DNA of 64,000 nucleotides from Candidatus Binataceae bacterium (GCA_963722605.1 CAVRNO010000004.1:410335-474334); one strand, 5' to 3'. Shown: positions 6,867 through 48,690, counted from the stretch's first letter. Notes: generated from the sequence alone by a model not told the origin. Made by a program: numbers and translations.

Positions 6867-9292
6867 AGCTCCCGCTCAGTTGGTTGAGGGACTTCGTCAG
6901 CATCGACGCGCCGGTCGAGGAAATCTCGCGCCGGCTCAGTTTCGCGGGATTAGTCGTCGAGAACGTCGAGAAACTCACGCCCGGATTCGCCCGCGTGTAC
7001 GCCGCCCGGGTGCTCCACGTCGAAAAGCATCCCAACGCCGACCGGCTCAGCCTTTGCGAGGTGGACGCCGGCCCAAAAGGCCAATTCAAAGTCGTGTGCG
7101 GCGCGCCCAACGTGAAGGCCGGGATGATGGCGGCGCTCGCTCTGGTTGGCGCGCAACTGGGCAAGCAGCCGCCGCTGGAGGCAGCCGTAATTCGCGGCGT
7201 GCGCTCCGAGGGCATGCTCTGCTCGGGGCGCGAGCTCGGCCTGTCGGATGAACAGGCTGGAATCCTTGCGCTCGGCGCGGATGCGCCGCTGGGCGGGGAC
7301 GTGGCCGCGTATTTGCACCTCGACGACATCGTGCTCGATGTCGAAATCACGCCGAATCGGGGCGATTGCCTGTCGATTCTCGGGCTGGCGCGCGAGATTG
7401 CAGCGTTGTTCGCCGCCAGGCTGCGCGCGCCAAGGCTGCGCGCGGCGCATAGCCCCGTCGCGCCCGGCGGCGAGCACGTTTCGCTTTCGGTTTCGATCGA
7501 AGCGCCCGATCTGTGCCCGCGTTACGCGGCGCTGGCGATGACCGGAATCAAGGTCGGTCCTTCGCCGGCGTGGCTTAAGCGCCGGCTGGAAGTATGCGGG
7601 ATGCGCGCGCTCAACAACGTGGTCGATGCGACCAACTACGTGATGCTCGAACTCGGCCAGCCCTTGCACGCGTTCGACTTCGGCAAAATTGCGGGCGGAG
7701 GGATTGTCGTCCGCCGCGCCGGCGCCACCAGCGAGTTCGTGACGCTGGACAACGTCGCGCGCGCTCTCGATTCAAACGATCTGCTGATCGCCGACAGCGA
7801 CAAGCCGCTGGCAATCGCGGGCGTGATGGGCGGACTCAACTCCGAGGTCGGCGACTCGACCGGGACTATTTTGCTCGAGAGCGCATACTTCGAGCCGATG
7901 ACGATAGCGCGCACCGCGCGCCGCCTGGGCTTGCGCAGCGAGGCAAGTTACCGCTTCGAGCGCGGCGTCGATCGCGCGGGACAGGTCGGCGCGCTGATTC
8001 GCGCGGCCGAATTGATCCGCAAGATCGCCGGCGGACGCGAGGCGTCGCCGATCGCCGACTTCGAGCCGCGCAAGGCCGAGCCGCGCGAGATTGCGCTCGA
8101 CCTGGGCGCGATGGAATCGCTGCTCGGCGCCGCGATACCGCCGGCCGTCGCCCGCAGCCGCCTCAAATCGCTGGGCGCGCAAGTGAGCACCCGCGCCAAG
8201 GGTGTGCTCGCGGTCGTGCCTCCGTCGTACCGCTCCGATCTGGCCGAGCAGGCCGATCTGATCGAGGAAGTCGCGCGCCTGGGCGGCCTCGAGGACATCC
8301 CGGCCCGGCTGCCCGCGCGCGTCAGCTCGCTGGCTCCGGTCAATCGCGAGCGTGATTTCTTGAAGGGCACGCGCGAGGTGATGCTGGGATGCGGGCTGAC
8401 CGAGGCCGCCACCATCGCGTTCATCGGGCCCGCCGACAACGCGCGCTTTCCGGGTATTGAAGCGGCGACGCGGCCGGTCAAGGTGACCAACCCGCTGTCG
8501 GCGGAACTGAGCGAGCTGCGGGTGAGCCTGATGCCGGGGCTGGTCGCCTCGCTCAGGTTCAATTTGAACCGCGAGGCGCGCGCCTTTCACGCGTTTGAAA
8601 TCGGCAAGACCTTTTGCATGCACGGCGACGCCGCGACCGAGCACGATCATCTCGCCGCGGTCAGCTACGGAACGTACGCCGTGTCCGCAATCGGCGAGCA
8701 GAGCGTGGCGGCGGGATTTTTTTCGATCAAGGGAATTCTCGAGACGTACCTGGAAGCGATTGGCATTTCGCCGCGAGTGGCGTACAAAGCTGTCGAGAGC
8801 GGCGAAGCGCCATTTCTTCCATTTCTGCATCCGGGGCGCAGCGCCGTGATCACGCTGGACGGCGCGGCGATCGGTTTGATCGGCGAGTTGCATCCGGCGG
8901 AAGCGATGCGGCTCGATCTGAGCGGTCCCTGCGCGGTGTATGAACTTGACTTGAGTGGGCTCATTGCCTATGGTTTCTCGCCGCGCAAAGCTTTCGAGCC
9001 GCCGCCAAAATATCCCGCGATCAGGCGCGATTTGGCGCTGGTGATGGATCGAAATTTCCCGGCGGATATGGTAGTCAAAGCCATTCGGGAGTGCGGCGCG
9101 TCGCTGCTGGAAAGCGTCGAGGTATTCGACGTGTACGAGGGGACGGCGGTGGCGGCCGGAAAAAAGAGCGTGGCGTTGGCTTGTCGTTACCGTGCAAAAG
9201 ATCGCACGCTGACCGATGAGGAGGTTAACCGCATTCACGCGCTGCTGGTGGAGCAGGCGCGGGTGCGATTAGGGGCTGAGTTGCGGAAGTAA
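6863..9292 (+). CDS. pheT: phenylalanyl-tRNA synthetase beta subunit
   Basis: 809 aa, MKLPLSWLRDFVSIDAPVEEI…, tRNA-binding, B3/4, B5 and FDX-ACB regions; ATGA overlap with pheS. Confidence 0.95.
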   Translation: MKLPLSWLRDFVSIDAPVEEISRRLSFAGLVVENVEKLTPGFARVYAARVLHVEKHPNADRLSLCEVDAGPKGQFKVVCGAPNVKAGMMAALALVGAQLGKQPPLEAAVIRGVRSEGMLCSGRELGLSDEQAGILALGADAPLGGDVAAYLHLDDIVLDVEITPNRGDCLSILGLAREIAALFAARLRAPRLRAAHSPVAPGGEHVSLSVSIEAPDLCPRYAALAMTGIKVGPSPAWLKRRLEVCGMRALNNVVDATNYVMLELGQPLHAFDFGKIAGGGIVVRRAGATSEFVTLDNVARALDSNDLLIADSDKPLAIAGVMGGLNSEVGDSTGTILLESAYFEPMTIARTARRLGLRSEASYRFERGVDRAGQVGALIRAAELIRKIAGGREASPIADFEPRKAEPREIALDLGAMESLLGAAIPPAVARSRLKSLGAQVSTRAKGVLAVVPPSYRSDLAEQADLIEEVARLGGLEDIPARLPARVSSLAPVNRERDFLKGTREVMLGCGLTEAATIAFIGPADNARFPGIEAATRPVKVTNPLSAELSELRVSLMPGLVASLRFNLNREARAFHAFEIGKTFCMHGDAATEHDHLAAVSYGTYAVSAIGEQSVAAGFFSIKGILETYLEAIGISPRVAYKAVESGEAPFLPFLHPGRSAVITLDGAAIGLIGELHPAEAMRLDLSGPCAVYELDLSGLIAYGFSPRKAFEPPPKYPAIRRDLALVMDRNFPADMVVKAIRECGASLLESVEVFDVYEGTAVAAGKKSVALACRYRAKDRTLTDEEVNRIHALLVEQARVRLGAELRK

Positions 9293-9335
9293 GCGTGCCT
9301 AACGCGAGCGGGTGGGGATCGTTACGCCGCAGGGC

Positions 9336-9629
9336 ATGACTAAGGCTGATCTCGTGGATTTGATCTACGAGCGGGTAGGCTCCTCCAAAAAGGAAGCCTG
9401 CGAAGTGGTCGAGGCGGTGTTTGCGATCATCAAGGATTCGTTGCGCCACGGTCAGAAAGTGAAAATTTCAGGCTTCGGCACCTTCCTGGTCAATCAAAAA
9501 CATGCGCGCCGCGGGCGCAACCCGCAGACCGGCGAGCCGATTACCATCGACTCGCGCCGGGTGCTCTCCTTCAAGCCGAGCCAGGTGTTGAAGGATCGGG
9601 TCAACAACGGCTCCAAGCAGGCCGGATGA
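9336..9629 (+). CDS. ihfA: integration host factor alpha subunit
   Basis: MTKADLVDLIYERVGSSKKEACEVVEAVFAIIKDSLRHGQKVKISGFGTFLVNQKHARRGRNPQTGEPITI… HU/IHF fold in the canonical position after pheT. Confidence 0.9.
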   Translation: MTKADLVDLIYERVGSSKKEACEVVEAVFAIIKDSLRHGQKVKISGFGTFLVNQKHARRGRNPQTGEPITIDSRRVLSFKPSQVLKDRVNNGSKQAG

Positions 9630-10096
9630 CGCCGATGCCACGCCAGCCATCGGTTGCGCGGCGAAAACCCAAGCCGGATGCGCGCGCGACGATGCCGCTG
9701 TTCCCCGAGCGGGGGCTCAAGATCGGCGAAGCAGCGCGCGCGCTTGGGGTCGAGACCTACGTGCTGCGTTTCTGGGAGACCCAGTTTCCATTTCTGAAAC
9801 CCCGGCACACCCGCACCAAGCATCGCTTCTACAATGAAAAGGACCTCGACGTGCTGCGCCTGATCAAGCGCCTGCTGCACGACGAAGGCTTCACGATCGC
9901 GGGCGCGAACAAGCACATCAAGGAATTCGGAATCGAAGCCTTAATGAGCGGCAAGCCGGTGGCAAAGCCAGCACCGCCGCCGCCGCAATCGGAGCGCACG
10001 CCTCATCGCCCCGCCGGAATCGACGGCCAAGCCCGCCGCGCACTCAACGAGGTGCGCCGCGAACTCGAATCAATCCACAAAATTTTAGAAGACTGA
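9626..10096 (+). CDS. MerR-family transcriptional regulator
   Basis: …GLKIGEAARALGVETYVLRFWETQFPFLKP… HTH_MerR; ATGA-coupled to ihfA. Alternative start at 9692 (MPLFPERGLKIG…). Confidence 0.8.
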   Translation: MTPMPRQPSVARRKPKPDARATMPLFPERGLKIGEAARALGVETYVLRFWETQFPFLKPRHTRTKHRFYNEKDLDVLRLIKRLLHDEGFTIAGANKHIKEFGIEALMSGKPVAKPAPPPPQSERTPHRPAGIDGQARRALNEVRRELESIHKILED

Positions 10097-10125
10097 GCAG
10101 CGCCCTGCGGTCGCCTACTTTTTGT

Positions 10126-10155
10126 GTCATCCCGACCGAAGTGGAGGGACCCCGG
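10126..10155. repeat. left terminal inverted repeat of retron island
   Basis: gtcatcccgaccgaagtggagggaccccgg; 27 of 30 identical to the reverse complement of 12561-12590. Confidence 0.6.
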
Positions 10156-10486
10156 ATCCGGATCTGCGTATGATCCGCGCTGAGATACCTCGCCCGTTAT
10201 TTTCACGGGAGAGGCGGCCGGCCGCCTTGCGGCCGGTAGGTGAGGGTGCAGCCGGCGAATGCTGACTCCCCTCGCGGCGCGATTTTGTGGTGCGGCGCGC
10301 ATTGCGCGCCCGTGACCGACGCGAAACTGGCTTTTCGGGCGATTTCGTGGGAGGCCAACTGTGCCCCCGCGGCGCCGGAAACACCGTGTGAACAAAACCG
10401 GCTTGGCACCTTGCAGAGGCAGGCCGTTGGGTCTGTAGCGGAGCTGGGCATCGGAGAGTCGAAACGGAAGTTCCGGCTTGCTCCAC

Positions 10487-10515
10487 TTGACGCGATACAT
10501 TCCAATTCGTATTCT
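10487..10515 (+). promoter_or_regulatory. sigma-70-type promoter of retron operon
   Basis: TTGACG-17 nt-TATTCT, predicted TSS ~10522 right at the a1 repeat. Confidence 0.45.
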
Positions 10516-10520
10516 CGTCT

Positions 10521-10676
10521 CGCTCTTAGCTGGGTTCCCGTTGACGAAACGCGAGCCTTATGCCGGGCGATTCGCCAGGCTGTTATGTATTGACCGTCAT
10601 GCTGCGGGCGGGTTTCTCACCCCGCCGAGCACGCTCAGCCGGGCTGAGAAACCCGCCGCGCTCAAAGTAAGAGCAA
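10521..10676 (+). ncRNA. candidate retron msr/msd ncRNA
   Basis: Between promoter and effector ATG. 5' cGCTCTTAg (10521-10529) can pair with 3' gTAAGAGCa (10667-10675) as a1/a2. Stem-loop GCCGGGCGattCGCCAGGC at 10562-10580. A 13 bp perfect stem GGCGGGTTTCTCA/TGAGAAACCCGCC (10607-10657) with a structured 25 nt interior, msd-like. Confidence 0.3.
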
Positions 10677-10678
10677 CG

Positions 10679-11269
10679 ATGAGCCACCCGTTCGATCATC
10701 CGGCGCTGTCCAAGCCTTTGGACAGCGCGATCAATGCCTTCAAAACAAAACGGGTTTCCTTACTTCAAGGAGCCAAGCTTATGTTCGTTTGTGGCGGGCC
10801 TACCGACTCGGTCCCGCCTACTGTACGGCAGAAGTTTCTTGATTGGGCGGCCACCAACATGCCTAATTGGAAGATGTTCTTGGCCGAGAAGGCCGCGGAA
10901 GATGCGCTCTCCAACACCAACCCGCCCCCTCTCAGACTCGCCAAATTCGAAGAATTTCTTGGCAGAGTTGCCGACTGTGTGATCGTATTCCCAGAATCGG
11001 TTGGGTCTTTTGCGGAGACGGGCTACTTCTCAGCCAAGCCCAAGGCCCTCGATAATATCTTGATCGTAAACTCCGACTCTGACGCTGGGCAAAGCAATTC
11101 ATTCCTTAACCGTGGGCCGATTGACGAAATCGAGCGAATCCCAACTAATAAGAAACTCGCGTTGGACTTCGCTGCAAACCCGCCAAACTTTTCACTCATA
11201 AAAGCGCGTCTCGAGGGAGTCCTCCCAAACGGAGGACCGGGGTCTCCATGGAGTCCTTCAAAGGTTTAA
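10679..11269 (+). CDS. retron effector, nucleoside 2-deoxyribosyltransferase-like (SLOG/NDT superfamily) protein
   Basis: 196 aa from MSHPFDH… inside ORF 10478..11269. …LMFVCGGPTDSV… glycine-rich motif and …VIVFPESVGSFAETGYFSA… matching the DSGTAFEIGYA catalytic-Glu motif of NDT. Sits immediately upstream of a retron RT, as for RcaT in retron Sen2. Confidence 0.6.
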   Translation: MSHPFDHPALSKPLDSAINAFKTKRVSLLQGAKLMFVCGGPTDSVPPTVRQKFLDWAATNMPNWKMFLAEKAAEDALSNTNPPPLRLAKFEEFLGRVADCVIVFPESVGSFAETGYFSAKPKALDNILIVNSDSDAGQSNSFLNRGPIDEIERIPTNKKLALDFAANPPNFSLIKARLEGVLPNGGPGSPWSPSKV

Positions 11270-11336
11270 GGGGCGTCGAGCAATTGGCGTTTTTGCTTTA
11301 CCTCTTCGGTTATTCCCGTCCCTCGACCTGGAAGGT

Positions 11337-12532
11337 ATGAAGCGAATTTTTCAGTCGGTATTTGGCACAGGAGGCTGGGATATTAAACGCGTGAGCCACC
11401 TCTTGTCCATCCTCGTCTCGGCGAAATACGTCGACCATCTGGCAGCCGATAACGACTATTATCATTTATCGGACCGCGCCGTCTCCACCATCGTTGATAG
11501 AGATCGTAGGCATAAACCCAGTCAACTGCTAATCCAACATCTCGATATTTATTCACGATATTTCCGACTTTGGTGCCTGCATAAAGAACTGCTGATGTTA
11601 GCTAACGTCCTAGCCGGAAAGACTGGTGTAACTGCTTTGTATATAGAGCAGCTAGCACGCTCGGCTAGTCATTTTTATAAGGTCTATACTATTGATAAGC
11701 GTAATGGTGACAGAAAAGGATCATCCAGCAGCCTTCGCGCGCACTCAAATTTCTCCAGCGCTGGATTGTCGCCAATGTTATACAAGATATTCCGATCCAT
11801 ACCGCCGCGGCGGCGTACGTAAAGGGCAGCAGCATTAGGCTGCATGCTGAGCGGCATGTTGCGAACAACTACCTTTTGAGGTTGGATTTTCAGCGGTTTT
11901 TCCCTTCGATTAAGGTGATCGACATAAGACGACATCTCGTTAAAAATCGGCCGTAGCTTCACTTTGTCGAGGACAGCGATATTGAGCTACTGGTCGCCGC
12001 AGTTACTCGCAGCGGTGGGCTAGTGATCGGCGCACCATCGTCGCCTGCCTTGTCGAATCAGATTATGTTTCAATTTGACGATCTCTTACACCGATGGTGT
12101 GCTGACTCAAACGTGACGTATTCGAGGTATGCTGACGATTTATATTTCTCCACTCGCATGCCTGGCGTCTTGGACGGTGCTCGCGAAAAGGTCGTGGAGC
12201 TTTTGAATTCAATAGACTACCCGCGGCTCCGCTTAAACGACGATAAAACGGTTCACACCTCACGGAAGAAGAAGCGGCTGGTCACAGGGTTGTCGCTTTC
12301 CTCTGACGGAAAGGTTTCATTGGGAAGAGAGAAGAAGCGCGAGATACGAAGCAGGATACATAAGCATGTCGTCGCAGGCTTGGAATCGGAAAAGCGGGCT
12401 TATTTGGCTGGCTACCTCGCATATGCGCGCTCCGTGGAACCACAGTTTATCGCTAGCTTGGACGGAAATACGGTCCAGAGACCGATGCGGGCTGTGATGA
12501 AGATGTCCCAGCCTCCAAGGTCTGGGCACTAG
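11337..12532 (+). pseudogene. retron-type reverse transcriptase, disrupted (frameshift at A4 run 11714-11717 plus in-frame TAG 11954-11956)
   Basis: Three collinear pieces align with Ec86/Ec67-class retron RTs. Frame 0 reaches …YKVYTIDKRNGD. Frame 2 carries KRIIQQPSRALKFLQRWIVANVI…GSSIRLHAERHVANNYLLRLDFQRFFPSI… up to the TAG. After the TAG comes …ELLVAAVTRSGGLVIGAPSSPALSNQIM…VTYSRYADDLYFS…NDDKTVHTSRKKKRLVTGLSLS…LGREKKREIRSRIHKH. One extra A in agaaaagga restores GDRKRIIQQPSRAL. A likelier true start is M at 11595 (MLANVLAGK…). Confidence 0.8.
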
Positions 12533-14897
12533 TAAAGCGCCCGACCTTTCGGGCGAGTACCCGGGGGCGCTCCGCTTCGGTCGGGATGACAAAGGAACGA
12601 GCGACGCAAAGAAAAAGATCCGGGATTCTTCGCTTCGCTCTAGAATGACACGGGCGCGGCGCATCGGGCGACGCAAAGAAGAAGACTGAAGAAACTAGTC
12701 GGAGAGGCGGTCTTGCGAAGCCAATTGGGCGGGGGCGGGGTTGCGGGCGGCGGCGGTATCTTTTGCGACGGAAGGCTGGGCGTATCAGAACGCCTAGCGG
12801 GGCTAGATTTAGTTCGGTTGCGCAATGCTCGGTGGCGCGATGGGCGGTGCGGCCGGCTTCTATCATTTCGGATGCTATGCATACCGCGCCGGCTATCGTG
12901 AGCGCGCCCAGGCCAAGCGCTATCTCGGGCAATCCCGCTATCGCGGCGAATCCCGCGCTTAGCGTGCCCGCCGCCAGAGCTATCTTGGTCATTCGAGTGG
13001 ATTTGATCCGCACCAGCACGCGGTTGGTGACTTTGCCCGCCTCGTGCTCTTCGTCGGCGGTCTTGAGTTCGATTCGGGTCCACGGATTGAGCCGTAGTTC
13101 GAGGTCGTAGTCGTTCCATCCGGGATCGACGATCGGGCCGTAGCCGCTGCGCGCGAACAGCTTGAGCATCCTGTCGATCAGGCGGTCGCGGGTGATGCTT
13201 TCGTTGTTCCAATAGTCCAGCCGGATGGTGCGCCTTAGCCAGTGGATGGTTGGGCGTTGGCGCACGCCGCTTTCGCCGGCGAGTGCGGTCAGGGCTTTCG
13301 CCCGCGTTTTGTAGCGCGTCATCGTTCGCACCATCGGGCCCGTGTAAGCAAGATACGCGATCAGAAGCCGCGCGGTGAGACTTTCGTGAGATTTTTCGAG
13401 CGGCGCATGCCACGCATAGTAGAGCGCCCAAATCGGCCCTAACGCGAGCATCGCAGCCGCGGGAACGATCGAGACGCCGAGTACGATCGACGCGGCGATC
13501 GCGATTGCGGAGAGCATCGTCCATTCGAGCGTCTGCGGGAGAACCATCGCCAGGGTAAGTCCGGGATCGGAAAGCGTCTGCGCGCCGGCGGTCGCGTTTT
13601 TCCACATCACGCGCATCCTGCTCCCGCCGGGAATGGTGCGCGCCAGGCCGGGAATCACCCCGCGCCACGCGATTTGGCCGAGCAGGTTGAAGCGCTCGGG
13701 ATATTTCGGAAAGAGCATCGCCTCGGCGCGTCCGTAGCCGCGCTGCTGTCCGTAGTAAGCCTTGATCGTGTTGCGGCGGAAGTGCCAGACGAAGGCGGCC
13801 GGCGAAAAACCGAGCTTGAAGCCGGCGTCGAGCATCCGCCAGCAGATGTCAACGTCGTCGCCGGCGGCGGTGAACTGCGGATCGAAGCCGCCGATTTTTG
13901 CGAGCGCCGCCTTGGCGAAGAGCATGTTGCATCCCGCCAGATGCTCGGCGCGATCGTCGGCGACCAGCACGTGGCACGGGGCGCCGGGCGAAGCGGCGCA
14001 ACTGGCTTCGATCCATCCGTCTTCGTGCGGCGCGTAGTTGGGACCGCCGCATCCGTCGAAGTTGTTTTCGACCATCGAGCGGACCGCCAGCGTCAGCCAA
14101 TGCGGATCGACGACGCAATCGGAATCGGTGTAGGCGATAATTTCGCCGCGCGCCGCCTGCATCCCGACGTTGCGCGCAACGGCGAGGCCCTTGTTGGGCT
14201 GGCGAATGAGGCGGAACTCGGGAAAATCCGTGGAGATGAGAGCGGTGCGATCGCGCGAGCCGTCATCGACGATGATGACCTCGAAATTGGGGTAGTCGAG
14301 GCGGCGCAGCGACTCGAGGCAATCGCGCATGGTGCGCTCGGCGTTGTAGGCGCAAATGACGACGGAGACCATCGGCATCCTGGGCGGCCGCGGCGGGCAG
14401 GTGCCGTTGAGGGTGACGAAGGGCATCAGCTCCGACGCGCGCATCATGCGCACGCCAAGCCAGTCGTGAGAAACCGGAGCAGGAACGGGCGGAGCAACCA
14501 CGCCAGCCGCACCCGTGCCAAACGCCACTGCGACCGCTTCGTCCTGCCCCGGCGATGCATGTTTGAATTCGATCACCACCGGCCGCGCTTCGGCGAGGTT
14601 GTGCAAGGCGACGACGAAGTCTCGAATCTGGACCGGCTCGAGCGCGGGAATTTCGGCGTAAAGAAAATCCTGTTCCAGGATTGAAAGGGCGCGGGTTTCC
14701 GGCCGGACCTTTATTCCGACAATCGCGCCGGGGGCGTATTCCTTGATCGTGTTGACGACGGCGCGCATCCGCCGCCGCGCGTTTTCGAGTCCGCCCGCGC
14801 GCAGCGCGTCCTGGCCGATCTCGCAATCGAGGATGTAACCGGCGAGCGCAGGATGCCTTCCAAAAATGTTTGCAGTATGCGCGATTCGCGAGAGCAC
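12453..14897 (-). CDS. membrane GT2-family glycosyltransferase (polysaccharide synthase-like), 3' end chimeric with island sequence
   Basis: …MPMVSVVICAYNAERTMRDCLESLRRLDYPNFEVIIVDDGSRDRT…DSDCVV…QQRGYGRAE… GT-A fold with D, DxD and Q(R/Q)xRW-like motifs, then multiple TM helices. The last ~80 codons (12453-12700) are read from low-GC island DNA antisense to the RT. The N-terminal ~185 aa before MPMVSVV is of unclear status. Confidence 0.7.
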   Translation of the reverse strand: MLSRIAHTANIFGRHPALAGYILDCEIGQDALRAGGLENARRRMRAVVNTIKEYAPGAIVGIKVRPETRALSILEQDFLYAEIPALEPVQIRDFVVALHNLAEARPVVIEFKHASPGQDEAVAVAFGTGAAGVVAPPVPAPVSHDWLGVRMMRASELMPFVTLNGTCPPRPPRMPMVSVVICAYNAERTMRDCLESLRRLDYPNFEVIIVDDGSRDRTALISTDFPEFRLIRQPNKGLAVARNVGMQAARGEIIAYTDSDCVVDPHWLTLAVRSMVENNFDGCGGPNYAPHEDGWIEASCAASPGAPCHVLVADDRAEHLAGCNMLFAKAALAKIGGFDPQFTAAGDDVDICWRMLDAGFKLGFSPAAFVWHFRRNTIKAYYGQQRGYGRAEAMLFPKYPERFNLLGQIAWRGVIPGLARTIPGGSRMRVMWKNATAGAQTLSDPGLTLAMVLPQTLEWTMLSAIAIAASIVLGVSIVPAAAMLALGPIWALYYAWHAPLEKSHESLTARLLIAYLAYTGPMVRTMTRYKTRAKALTALAGESGVRQRPTIHWLRRTIRLDYWNNESITRDRLIDRMLKLFARSGYGPIVDPGWNDYDLELRLNPWTRIELKTADEEHEAGKVTNRVLVRIKSTRMTKIALAAGTLSAGFAAIAGLPEIALGLGALTIAGAVCIASEMIEAGRTAHRATEHCATELNLAPLGVLIRPAFRRKRYRRRPQPRPRPIGFARPPLRLVSSVFFFASPDAPRPCHSRAKRRIPDLFLCVARSFVIPTEAERPRVLARKVGRFTSAQTLEAGTSSSQPASVSGPYFRPS
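12561..12590. repeat. right terminal inverted repeat of retron island
   Basis: ccgggggcgctccgcttcggtcgggatgac; reverse complement is gtcatcccgaccgaagcggagcgcccccgg. Confidence 0.6.
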
Positions 14898-15517
14898 GGA
14901 TTTCCATCCGCGGCGGCGCGCAAGCTCATCGGCGGTGATTCTCGAGCTCGACCATCGCGACCAGTCCCGACTGGGCCGCGATGTCCATGCAGGGCTGCGA
15001 CTGCGCCTCGGTCAGGACGACGCCGGTGGTGTGCGCGGCTCTGAGATCGTCGAACCGCTTTCTCAGTTTGAGCTTGTGGGCGAAATCGAGGGTTGCGCCG
15101 ACGCCGTCGAGGCGCATCGCCTTGAAAAAGAACTTCTGTCCTGCGCGGGAAAGGAACTTACCGTGCGGGGTGACGTGTTGTGGCTGAACAGGACCGGAAT
15201 TGGCAAGCATCTGATGTAGGCGTCCTCTGGATCAGGAACCAAGTGCCAAAGCCATGCCATCGGGAAAGTCCAGCGATTATGGGGCTTTTTCGGCGAACCT
15301 CCGCCTCGCACAAACCAATTGGGATGAGCCGTGTACGTTTTGCGCGCCGGGCGGGACCGGGAGCGAGGGGTTCGCAGGGTGCAAAATCAGGCAGGATGCC
15401 GTCGTGATATACACGCATGCCGCCCGGATAGACACCGCTAGATTGGTTATTTTGCGAATGTTATACGTCAGTGGTTGAGATGCTAACGCAAGAATCCTTC
15501 CACCGGGTTTTACCGCA

Positions 15518-48635: not shown

Positions 48636-48690
48636 TCGCGCTGTCATTCTGAGCGCAACGAAGAATCCCGATCCTTACTGAGCGGTTAGA

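Follow-up and report, generated by a model that had tools for sequence, protein, structure and literature searches.

By definition, type II-A1 retrons include an effector protein in which an N-terminal NDT-like domain is joined to a C-terminal DNA-binding domain (PMC7736814). In Retron-Sen2 (St85), Retron-Vch2/Vc81 and Retron-Eco3/Ec73, the effector gene is placed between a noncoding RNA (ncRNA) gene and a reverse transcriptase (RT) gene. The RT of Retron-Sen2 and the multicopy single-stranded DNA (msDNA) produced from its msr-msd region jointly neutralize the NDT-like toxin, and perturbation frees the toxin (bioRxiv 10.1101/2020.06.22.160168). A retron with this same gene order is present in a 64,000 nt stretch of DNA from a Candidatus Binataceae bacterium (GCA_963722605.1 CAVRNO010000004.1:410335-474334), which in its entirety is termed the window. 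A preliminary description of this DNA had drawn attention to inverted repeats of about 30 bp that bracket the retron, and offered as explanations a non-autonomous vehicle bounded by terminal inverted repeats (TIRs), an invertible segment, or an insertion captured by host repeats. Our analysis indicates that the two arms are very probably separate copies of a ubiquitous short motif rather than the two ends of one mobile unit, and that the right arm is the 3′ terminus of a decayed retron module residing in a hotspot for cargo exchange.

Relation to type II-A1 retrons

When its interrupted reading frames are joined, the RT of the window aligns end to end with known type II-A RTs, matching positions 3-302 of the 304 in the PADLOC profile RT_II-A (E = 5.9e-107) and the NCBIfam model retron_St85_RT (326.6 bits, with a cutoff of 235). 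It is 87% identical to an intact homolog of 315 aa, and intact homologs in general are 313-315 aa long with 81-87% identity. The joined effector likewise matches NDT_II-A (3-242 of 279, E = 1e-37) and the STM3845 family, to which the intact effector of locus L089 (comparison loci are denoted by L and a number) is assigned with 136 bits. As in other type II-A1 retrons, the NDT-like part of the effector is N-terminal and is followed by a DNA-binding part at the C terminus, and the ncRNA combines an a1/a2 helix with a long msd stem. Specifically, a consensus fold of five msr-msd copies contains the a1/a2 helix, msr stem-loops and the long msd hairpin, with four compensatory pairs. The msr-msd region is also picked up by an inverted-repeat search (repeat I3), and the Rfam msr model scores it at 24.2 bits, below the gathering score of 52.

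On the basis of these sequence matches, we assign the module to type II-A1 (the St85/Sen2 family), with an ncRNA, an NDT-like effector carrying a DNA-binding tail, and an RT. The preliminary description had correctly placed a retron and its NDT-like effector between merR and a gene for a GT2-family glycosyltransferase (termed GT2). The window retron differs from described type II-A1 members in that it is found in Candidatus Binatota and has both protein genes disrupted. Furthermore, the clade to which it belongs (RT identity of at least 75%) adds a conserved 5′ leader of ~120 nt and a dispersed motif as its end.

The disruption of the two genes is extensive. In six-frame translation, the coding signal shifts frame near 11240, 11335 and 11715, and an in-frame TAG at 11954-11956 stands where relatives have a conserved His. 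In an alignment with two intact copies, the effector gene of the window has lost single bases near 11215, 11307, 11521 and 11568, and the RT gene has lost one near 11710 and also carries a compensated −1/+1 pair at 12462/12482. The effector had previously been called intact, but its open reading frame (ORF; 10679-11269) reaches profile positions 9-140 of 277 only, with the remainder in shifted frames. Likewise, the cassette described as complete does contain the bracketing repeat, the RT, the NDT-like effector and msr-msd, but it is incomplete.

Because the sequences of the relatives resemble long-read assemblies and single-base indels occur in L002, we measured the background frameshift rate within the window, on ~13 kb of flanking housekeeping genes. 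Five uncompensated deletions fall within ~0.5 kb of the retron (11215-11710), compared with zero frameshifts in the flanking genes, which places the retron lesions far above the housekeeping-gene background. Since the effector and the RT have both lost their frames, the window copy is most likely a non-functional remnant.

Boundaries of the retron module

A metagenome scan and exact-protein look-ups revealed the same retron elsewhere, at 81-88% nucleotide identity. In L084, it is flanked by an ethanolamine lyase gene on one side and by methyltransferase and sigma factor genes on the other. In L089/L090, NnrS lies on one side and alcohol dehydrogenase on the other, and in L091/L092, genes for FUR and rubrerythrin are located downstream. 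L085/L086 occupy the same GT2 hotspot as the window and encode an intact RT, and L087/L088 encode the same RT protein as L085, with a flank that diverges further on. The flanking genes are unrelated between retron contexts, which have short dispersed repeats alone in common.

Homology between the window and L084, L089/L090 and L091 begins at 10365-10373. At the other end, homology with L084, L085-L088, L089 and L091/L092 stops at 12590-12600, which corresponds to the outer end of a minus-strand motif located 25-40 nt after the RT stop codon. (In L090 the homology stops at 12579, where its contig ends; the L085-L088 contigs start inside the effector gene, and their left part is missing.) Because homology spans 10365-12590 across contexts, the module includes the right arm of the inverted repeat (B) and excludes the left arm (A), which lies 207 bp away. 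The 206 bp spacer between arm A and the module has a host-like GC content of 66%. No left-flank motif is present in L089 and L091, which make up two of the three informative left flanks outside the window, and no direct repeat abutting the arms or the module ends was found in four contexts.

Base composition follows the same boundaries. The module has 52-54% GC in every context, compared with 62-63% around it. The earlier observation that the segment is richer in AT than its surroundings thus holds, but the low-GC block corresponds to 10365-12590 (52.8% GC) rather than to 10126-12590, and its onset in the GC profile, near 10400-10450, is away from arm A.

The 5′ end of the module is formed by the conserved leader (10365-10486), which lies upstream of the promoter-like site of msr. 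Within it are a second promoter-like pair, TTGCAG-17-TGTAGC, and the near-palindrome ACACCGTGT. A less closely related St85-type retron (L093 5089-12912), whose RT is 72% identical, has neither the 5′ leader nor the terminal motif. This retron is located beside genes for SMC/AAA, metallophosphatase and OLD-TOPRIM proteins, in a context that resembles a defence island.

The dispersed motif family

The inverted repeat is real and beyond chance. An inverted-repeat search returned arms of 31 nt at 10125-10155 and 12561-12591 that are complementary at 28 of 31 positions (90%). The 30-mer, when up to three mismatches are allowed, occurs at only these two sites in the 64 kb; 0.00 sites are expected from shuffled sequences. 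The TIR-like pair of the preliminary description is thereby confirmed, as are its location between a pheT-ihfA-merR block and GT2 and the lack of both a transposase gene inside the segment and a visible target-site duplication. Further similarity just outside the arms (cTTTGTgtCAT), which had been taken as an extension of this particular pair, instead belongs to the consensus of a motif family.

By using a looser pattern and a hand scan, we located two additional copies in the window, one (C) on the minus strand 25 nt past arm B and another (D) at 48642-48670. All four copies consist of TGTCAT, a short stem, the centre GAnCGnAGyGrAG, the complementary stem and CCCGGATC. The consensus of the family, TGTCATyCyGAnCGnAGyGrAGrrAyCCC, is ~28-30 nt long, and its stem of 4-5 bp covaries across subtypes (ATTCT/AGAAT, ATCCT/AGGAT and TCCC/GGGA). 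An iterated nhmmer profile was used for the family; a single covariance model was dropped, the 3′ halves of the subtypes being offset by one base. This profile yielded 35 matches in 1.44 Mb of sequence from the window and its relatives, and none in reversed-sequence controls. About two-thirds of the 35 copies reside in merR/GT2 gaps and about one-third at unrelated positions. The preliminary description had named a repeat dispersed over many unrelated sites as the observation that speaks against a TIR-bounded unit, and because the arm belongs to such a motif, this is the outcome for the arm motif.

The family extends far beyond these loci. One subtype gave more than 120 exact 25-mer matches among the viral-contig matches listed, and 80 motif-bearing viral-contig loci, with GC contents ranging from 32 to 70%, hold 142 matches. 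In viral contigs, conservation is limited to ~28 nt, flanks are not conserved, and close inverted doublets are common. The form TGTCATyCTGAGCGnAGCGAAGrATCTC is nearly invariant over contigs of 32-70% GC. Unannotated copies are also carried on plasmids of cyanobacteria, Bacteroidota, Acidobacteria, Alphaproteobacteria and a spirochaete, and copies occur in both orientations. No Rfam family matches the motif, and no description of it was found in the literature searched. Neither the retron clade nor the retron-type variant of the motif was found in viral contigs.

Among known repeats, the motif is reminiscent of repetitive extragenic palindromic (REP) elements and REPINs, which are likewise short and mostly intergenic, occupy many unrelated sites, form close inverted doublets and have a covarying stem. 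However, its sequence differs from those of classical REPs, and it is nearly unchanged across phyla and from 32 to 70% GC, unlike lineage-specific REPs. Nearest-neighbour folding gives energies no better than those of shuffled sequences (z of +0.4 to +1.2), so no unusual stability is apparent. A stable hairpin was set aside for this lack of excess stability, and the term ‘hairpin-like’ refers to the covariation of the stem alone. Integron attC sites have core sequences of the GTTRRRY/RYYYAAC type, are found in one orientation and have an integrase nearby. In contrast, the motif has no such cores when read by eye, occurs in both orientations and has no integrase among its neighbouring genes.

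The closest relative of arm A is a copy from L007 (97%), and arm B ranks only seventh of 52 for A. In L005, which has no retron, two motif copies follow merR, after the second of which comes the repeat that neighbours arm A in the window. L007, a different species and also without the retron, has a tandem of a B-like motif, a spacer and a C motif at 12576-12671, with other cargo on either side. Arm A probably belongs to the repeat-rich host sequence that follows merR. Of the options in the preliminary description, an insertion captured by host REP-like repeats comes nearest to our findings, and it is close to the data for arm A.

The repeat that neighbours arm A (10186-10260) matches L003 1304-1377 (88%), L005 10855-10892, L084 7047-7079 and L091 ~190-240. 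Besides the motif, at least three families of short repeats, this one included, are densely packed into these intergenic regions and turn up at unrelated positions in many Binataceae loci, with examples being TACCTCGCCCGTT..GGGAGAGGCGG, GGCAGGGGTGACCCCTGCACCC..GTGTTAAGG and GGGCTTCGCCCTGTTAGAAG..GGTTAAGGGGG. They are present at 10186-10260 of the window, L005 10480-10900, L084 4270-4460, L089 4330-4470 and L091 1-240. The features of the window are collected in Table 1.

Table 1. Features at the retron locus and the more distant motif copy D, in window coordinates
Feature	Position	Strand	Basis and remarks
ihfA/HU-family DNA-binding protein gene, conserved left flank	9312..9629	+	Pfam Bac_DNA_binding, E=1.5e-32; kept in ~60 relatives
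MerR-family regulator gene	9626..10096	+	Pfam MerR_1, E=2e-20; the site becomes variable from its stop codon onward
Motif copy A (left arm)	10121..10158	+	nhmmer E=4e-10; host repeat scaffold, outside the retron module
Second short dispersed repeat, TACCTCGCCCGTT...GGGAGAGGCGGCCGGCCG...	10186..10260	+	Host-like GC; matches L003, L005, L084, L091
Retron module, assigned to type II-A1 / St85 family	10365..12590	+	2.23 kb, 52.8% GC; DNA homology across contexts
Putative promoter-like site TTGACG-17-TATTCT	10487..10515	+	Consensus scan, 9/12; kept in all retron copies; just upstream of msr
msr-msd ncRNA gene	10522..10674	+	a1 10522-10528, a2 10668-10674, msd stem 10607-10657
Truncated effector ORF, N-terminal NDT-like part of St85/STM3845 effector	10679..11269	+	NCBIfam STM3845_fam, 105 bits, 9-140/277
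Effector C-terminal DNA-binding remnant, shifted frames	11237..11594	+	Six-frame translation; alignment to intact L089/L084
Retron RT pseudogene	11595..12532	+	Joined frames match PADLOC RT_II-A; lesions relative to intact 313-315 aa homologs
Small stem-loop GCGCCCGACCTTTCGGGCG	12537..12557	+	After the RT stop; kept in all module copies
Motif copy B (right arm)	12560..12593	-	Conserved 3′ terminus of the retron module
Motif copy C	12616..12651	-	Host scaffold adjoining GT2; kept in retron-less L002 (14996-15033) and L007 (12637-12671)
GT2-family glycosyltransferase gene, conserved right flank	12696..15213	-	Pfam Glycos_transf_2, E=2e-33
Motif copy D	48642..48670	+	E=8.8e-6; intergenic, at an unrelated position shortly after the stop codon of a gene

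Cargo exchange at the merR/GT2 site

The general concept of hotspots between core genes, where the same flanks enclose an empty site or different cargo, is known from E. coli (PMC10121019) and P. aeruginosa (PMC10250203). To compare the merR/GT2 site, ~60 syntenic loci from Candidatus Binatus/Binataceae (phylum Binatota) were assembled by exact-protein look-up and a MerR genome scan. The distance between merR and GT2 ranges from ~90 bp (L009 and L023, where the site is effectively empty) to more than 6 kb (L007 and L050). As far as 10096, the window shares 98% identity with L002; beyond that position the two diverge. Although its flanks are 97-98% identical to those of the window, L002 carries genes for a SIR2-domain protein, an LmuC/MComp1-like protein and an LmuB-like SMC ATPase at 10934-14276, and this Lamassu-like cargo in a very close relative shows recent cargo replacement. 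L005 instead encodes a Swt1-like HEPN protein, and the cargo of other merR-GT2 gaps includes a thiamine pyrophosphate-dependent oxidase, RidA, an SDR protein and an IS110-like gene, among others. The retron is present in none of the ~60 syntenic genome loci, but the metagenome locus L085 has it at the same site as the window.

The merR/GT2 site is therefore a hypervariable hotspot, with the same flanks around an empty or differently filled interval. It differs from that general concept in that its cargo comprises not only the retron, Lamassu-like and HEPN genes but also metabolic genes, a GIY-YIG element and the IS110-like gene, and short-repeat families crowd the site. No integrase, transposase or recombinase gene was found near the site in the window or among the neighbouring genes. 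Given that the retron occupies a hypervariable site with differing cargo, it most likely arrived by cargo exchange at this hotspot, with its right junction at or within motif B.

The GIY-YIG element is ~480 bp in length and lies beside the GT2 stop codon in relatives, with copies at L012 4013-4527, L018 12867-13379, L049 9066-9577, L032 10541-10898 and L013 12317-12507. It has inverted repeats of ~85 nt, of which the outer ~40 nt are the motif, and its gene encodes a small GIY-YIG nuclease of 96 aa (PF01541, E = 1.5e-16). The inner segment in L012/L032 is opposite in orientation to that in L018/L049. The L032 copy is partly deleted, the L018 copy is frameshifted, and L013 is a gene-less miniature. 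No description of a small TIR-bounded GIY-YIG element was found in the literature searched. We rejected a general tie between the motif family and GIY-YIG genes, as all four cases (L012, L018, L049 and L032) occupy one orthologous spot. Moreover, no GIY-YIG homolog was detected in the 80 independent motif loci (142 matches) with one tblastn query, which divergent genes could escape. Because these loci lack such a homolog, the link between the motif and GIY-YIG genes appears to be local.

Several observations weigh against the view that the arms are independent copies and the module a decayed one. L084 also has an inverted motif pair around its retron, with the left copy 203 bp from the module (207 bp in the window), so that the motif is found on two of the four informative left flanks when the window is included. 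An exact empty site for the module was not available among the loci compared, and positions 10261-10364 of the window match none of the sequences compared. In the GIY-YIG element at this same site, the motif forms the outer ends of the long inverted repeats, which indicates that motif pairs can bound segments. In addition, some or all of the frame breaks could be assembly errors in a locally poor consensus. In L002, single-base indels split cca (~1405-1479) and pheT (~9287-9307), genes that are unsplit in the window, and this suggests that consensus indel errors occur in such assemblies. The GT2 gene of the window also has frame breaks, near 12778 and 14942, and two frames are needed to match four reference proteins; either real decay or a local assembly error could be responsible. 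(As a consequence of the GT2 breaks, the listed ORF extends through motifs C and B into the 3′ end of the RT gene.)

Four other explanations draw on these observations or on the junctions of the module. The segment from A to B could be a single unit of the kind known as miniature inverted-repeat transposable elements (MITEs), with the retron as cargo and a transposase acting in trans. As in MITEs, a non-random inverted repeat of ~30 nt surrounds a segment without a transposase, L084 repeats the arrangement, and at this site in relatives motif pairs bound the GIY-YIG gene and the gene-less miniature of L013, a true MITE-like derivative of the same motif. However, 207 bp separate arm A from the start of the conserved unit, a left motif is missing in L089 and L091, target-site duplications are absent, and repeated A-to-B copies are not found. 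The ~205 bp left spacers of the window and L084 are unrelated (z = −0.45, compared with 14.6 for a positive control), which rules out a longer unit with a motif at each end that is common to both loci. Furthermore, L005 has arm A and the repeat next to it but no retron, and A and B are not mutual closest relatives in one direction. A MITE-like vehicle is thus highly improbable, and largely refuted already. Even less credible, to the point of being nearly dismissed, is an invertible segment in which recombination between A and B flips the retron and switches its expression. The arms are indeed inverted and 90% identical, and the GIY-YIG segment does occur in both orientations in relatives, but that segment lies between much longer inverted repeats; the retron arms are only 31 nt with three mismatches. 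The orientation of the retron relative to GT2 is the same in the window and L085, no invertase gene was found, and because the putative promoter is inside the segment, inversion would not switch retron expression.

The junctions at motif B give somewhat more substance to a third possibility, that the motif serves as a site of recombination or insertion, loosely similar to attC or to a REP target, and that the window's clade of St85-type retrons is a cassette moving by means of its 3′ motif copy. In five contexts, the module stops on its right side where motif B has its outer end. Motif B is also the exact stretch of the window over which homology of the retron type, to L084, and of the host type, to L007, coincide. 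At the junction where L085 and the window have the full motif, L005, which has no retron, retains just the outer half of a B-type motif, with its own cargo to the left. This pattern suggests that exchange occurs at or in the motif. L085 (1669-1823) and L087 (1572-1724), whose RT proteins are identical, have 153 nt after motif B in common and then split at the outer end of the next motif, with GT2 following in L085 and a DUF952-like ORF in L087; this divergence could mean that the retron has a second location in the genome, or that the assembly at the repeat is chimeric or strain-variant. Within the hotspot, slightly more breakpoints of homology than expected fall at motifs (12 of 95, with 6.9 expected; p = 0.04, for non-independent events and without correction). 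This enrichment is weak, and motifs as general breakpoints of cargo exchange were accordingly set aside and kept as a minority hypothesis. Against the cassette also stand the left end of the module, which has no motif, the absence of a recombinase gene encoded nearby, the mixed orientation of the motif, the lack of visible attC-like cores, and the tendency that metagenome contigs may have to break or misjoin at repeats. Overall, we consider motif-mediated movement unlikely, with a small but real chance of being correct. Also unlikely, and slightly more so, is a retron that is intact and functional, with frame breaks produced by consensus errors of long-read metagenome assembly in a low-coverage, strain-variable region. 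The indels of L002, whose contig names are of long-read style and which is 97-98% identical to the window, the two breaks in the adjoining GT2 gene, and the fact that the retron frame breaks are all single-base deletions are consistent with this idea. In contrast, the clustering of five uncompensated deletions and a compensated pair beside ~13 kb of unbroken housekeeping genes argues against it, as do the location of the deletions outside homopolymer runs and the TAG in place of the conserved His, which requires substitutions rather than an indel.

We therefore favour independent motif copies, with arm B as the built-in 3′ terminus of a discrete 2.23 kb module that seems to recur with the same ends at unrelated Binataceae sites. 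If it works like Retron-Sen2, a copy with unbroken genes would produce msDNA from its msr-msd, and the RT and msDNA together would restrain the NDT-like toxin until perturbed. The loss of both the toxin and its RT antitoxin may represent the end state expected, regardless of the order of events, for a decaying module of the toxin/antitoxin type. The window retron adds a degraded member to a known retron type and occupies a variable hotspot, and the claim of a TIR-bounded retron vehicle fails and should not be carried forward. The merR/GT2 site, which swaps defence and other cargo, provides a clear case of such a hotspot in the poorly known phylum Binatota. That an St85-type retron acts as a discrete 2.2 kb module, with the same two ends at several unrelated sites, is a lead rather than a result, and the same is true of its terminal motif being a very widespread, unannotated short repeat. 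The mechanism of retron mobility is undemonstrated (PMC7736814). If true, motif-mediated cassette movement would offer a concrete mechanism for it, and the interpretation of the motif as a recombination site would give a function to an unannotated sequence found across phyla.

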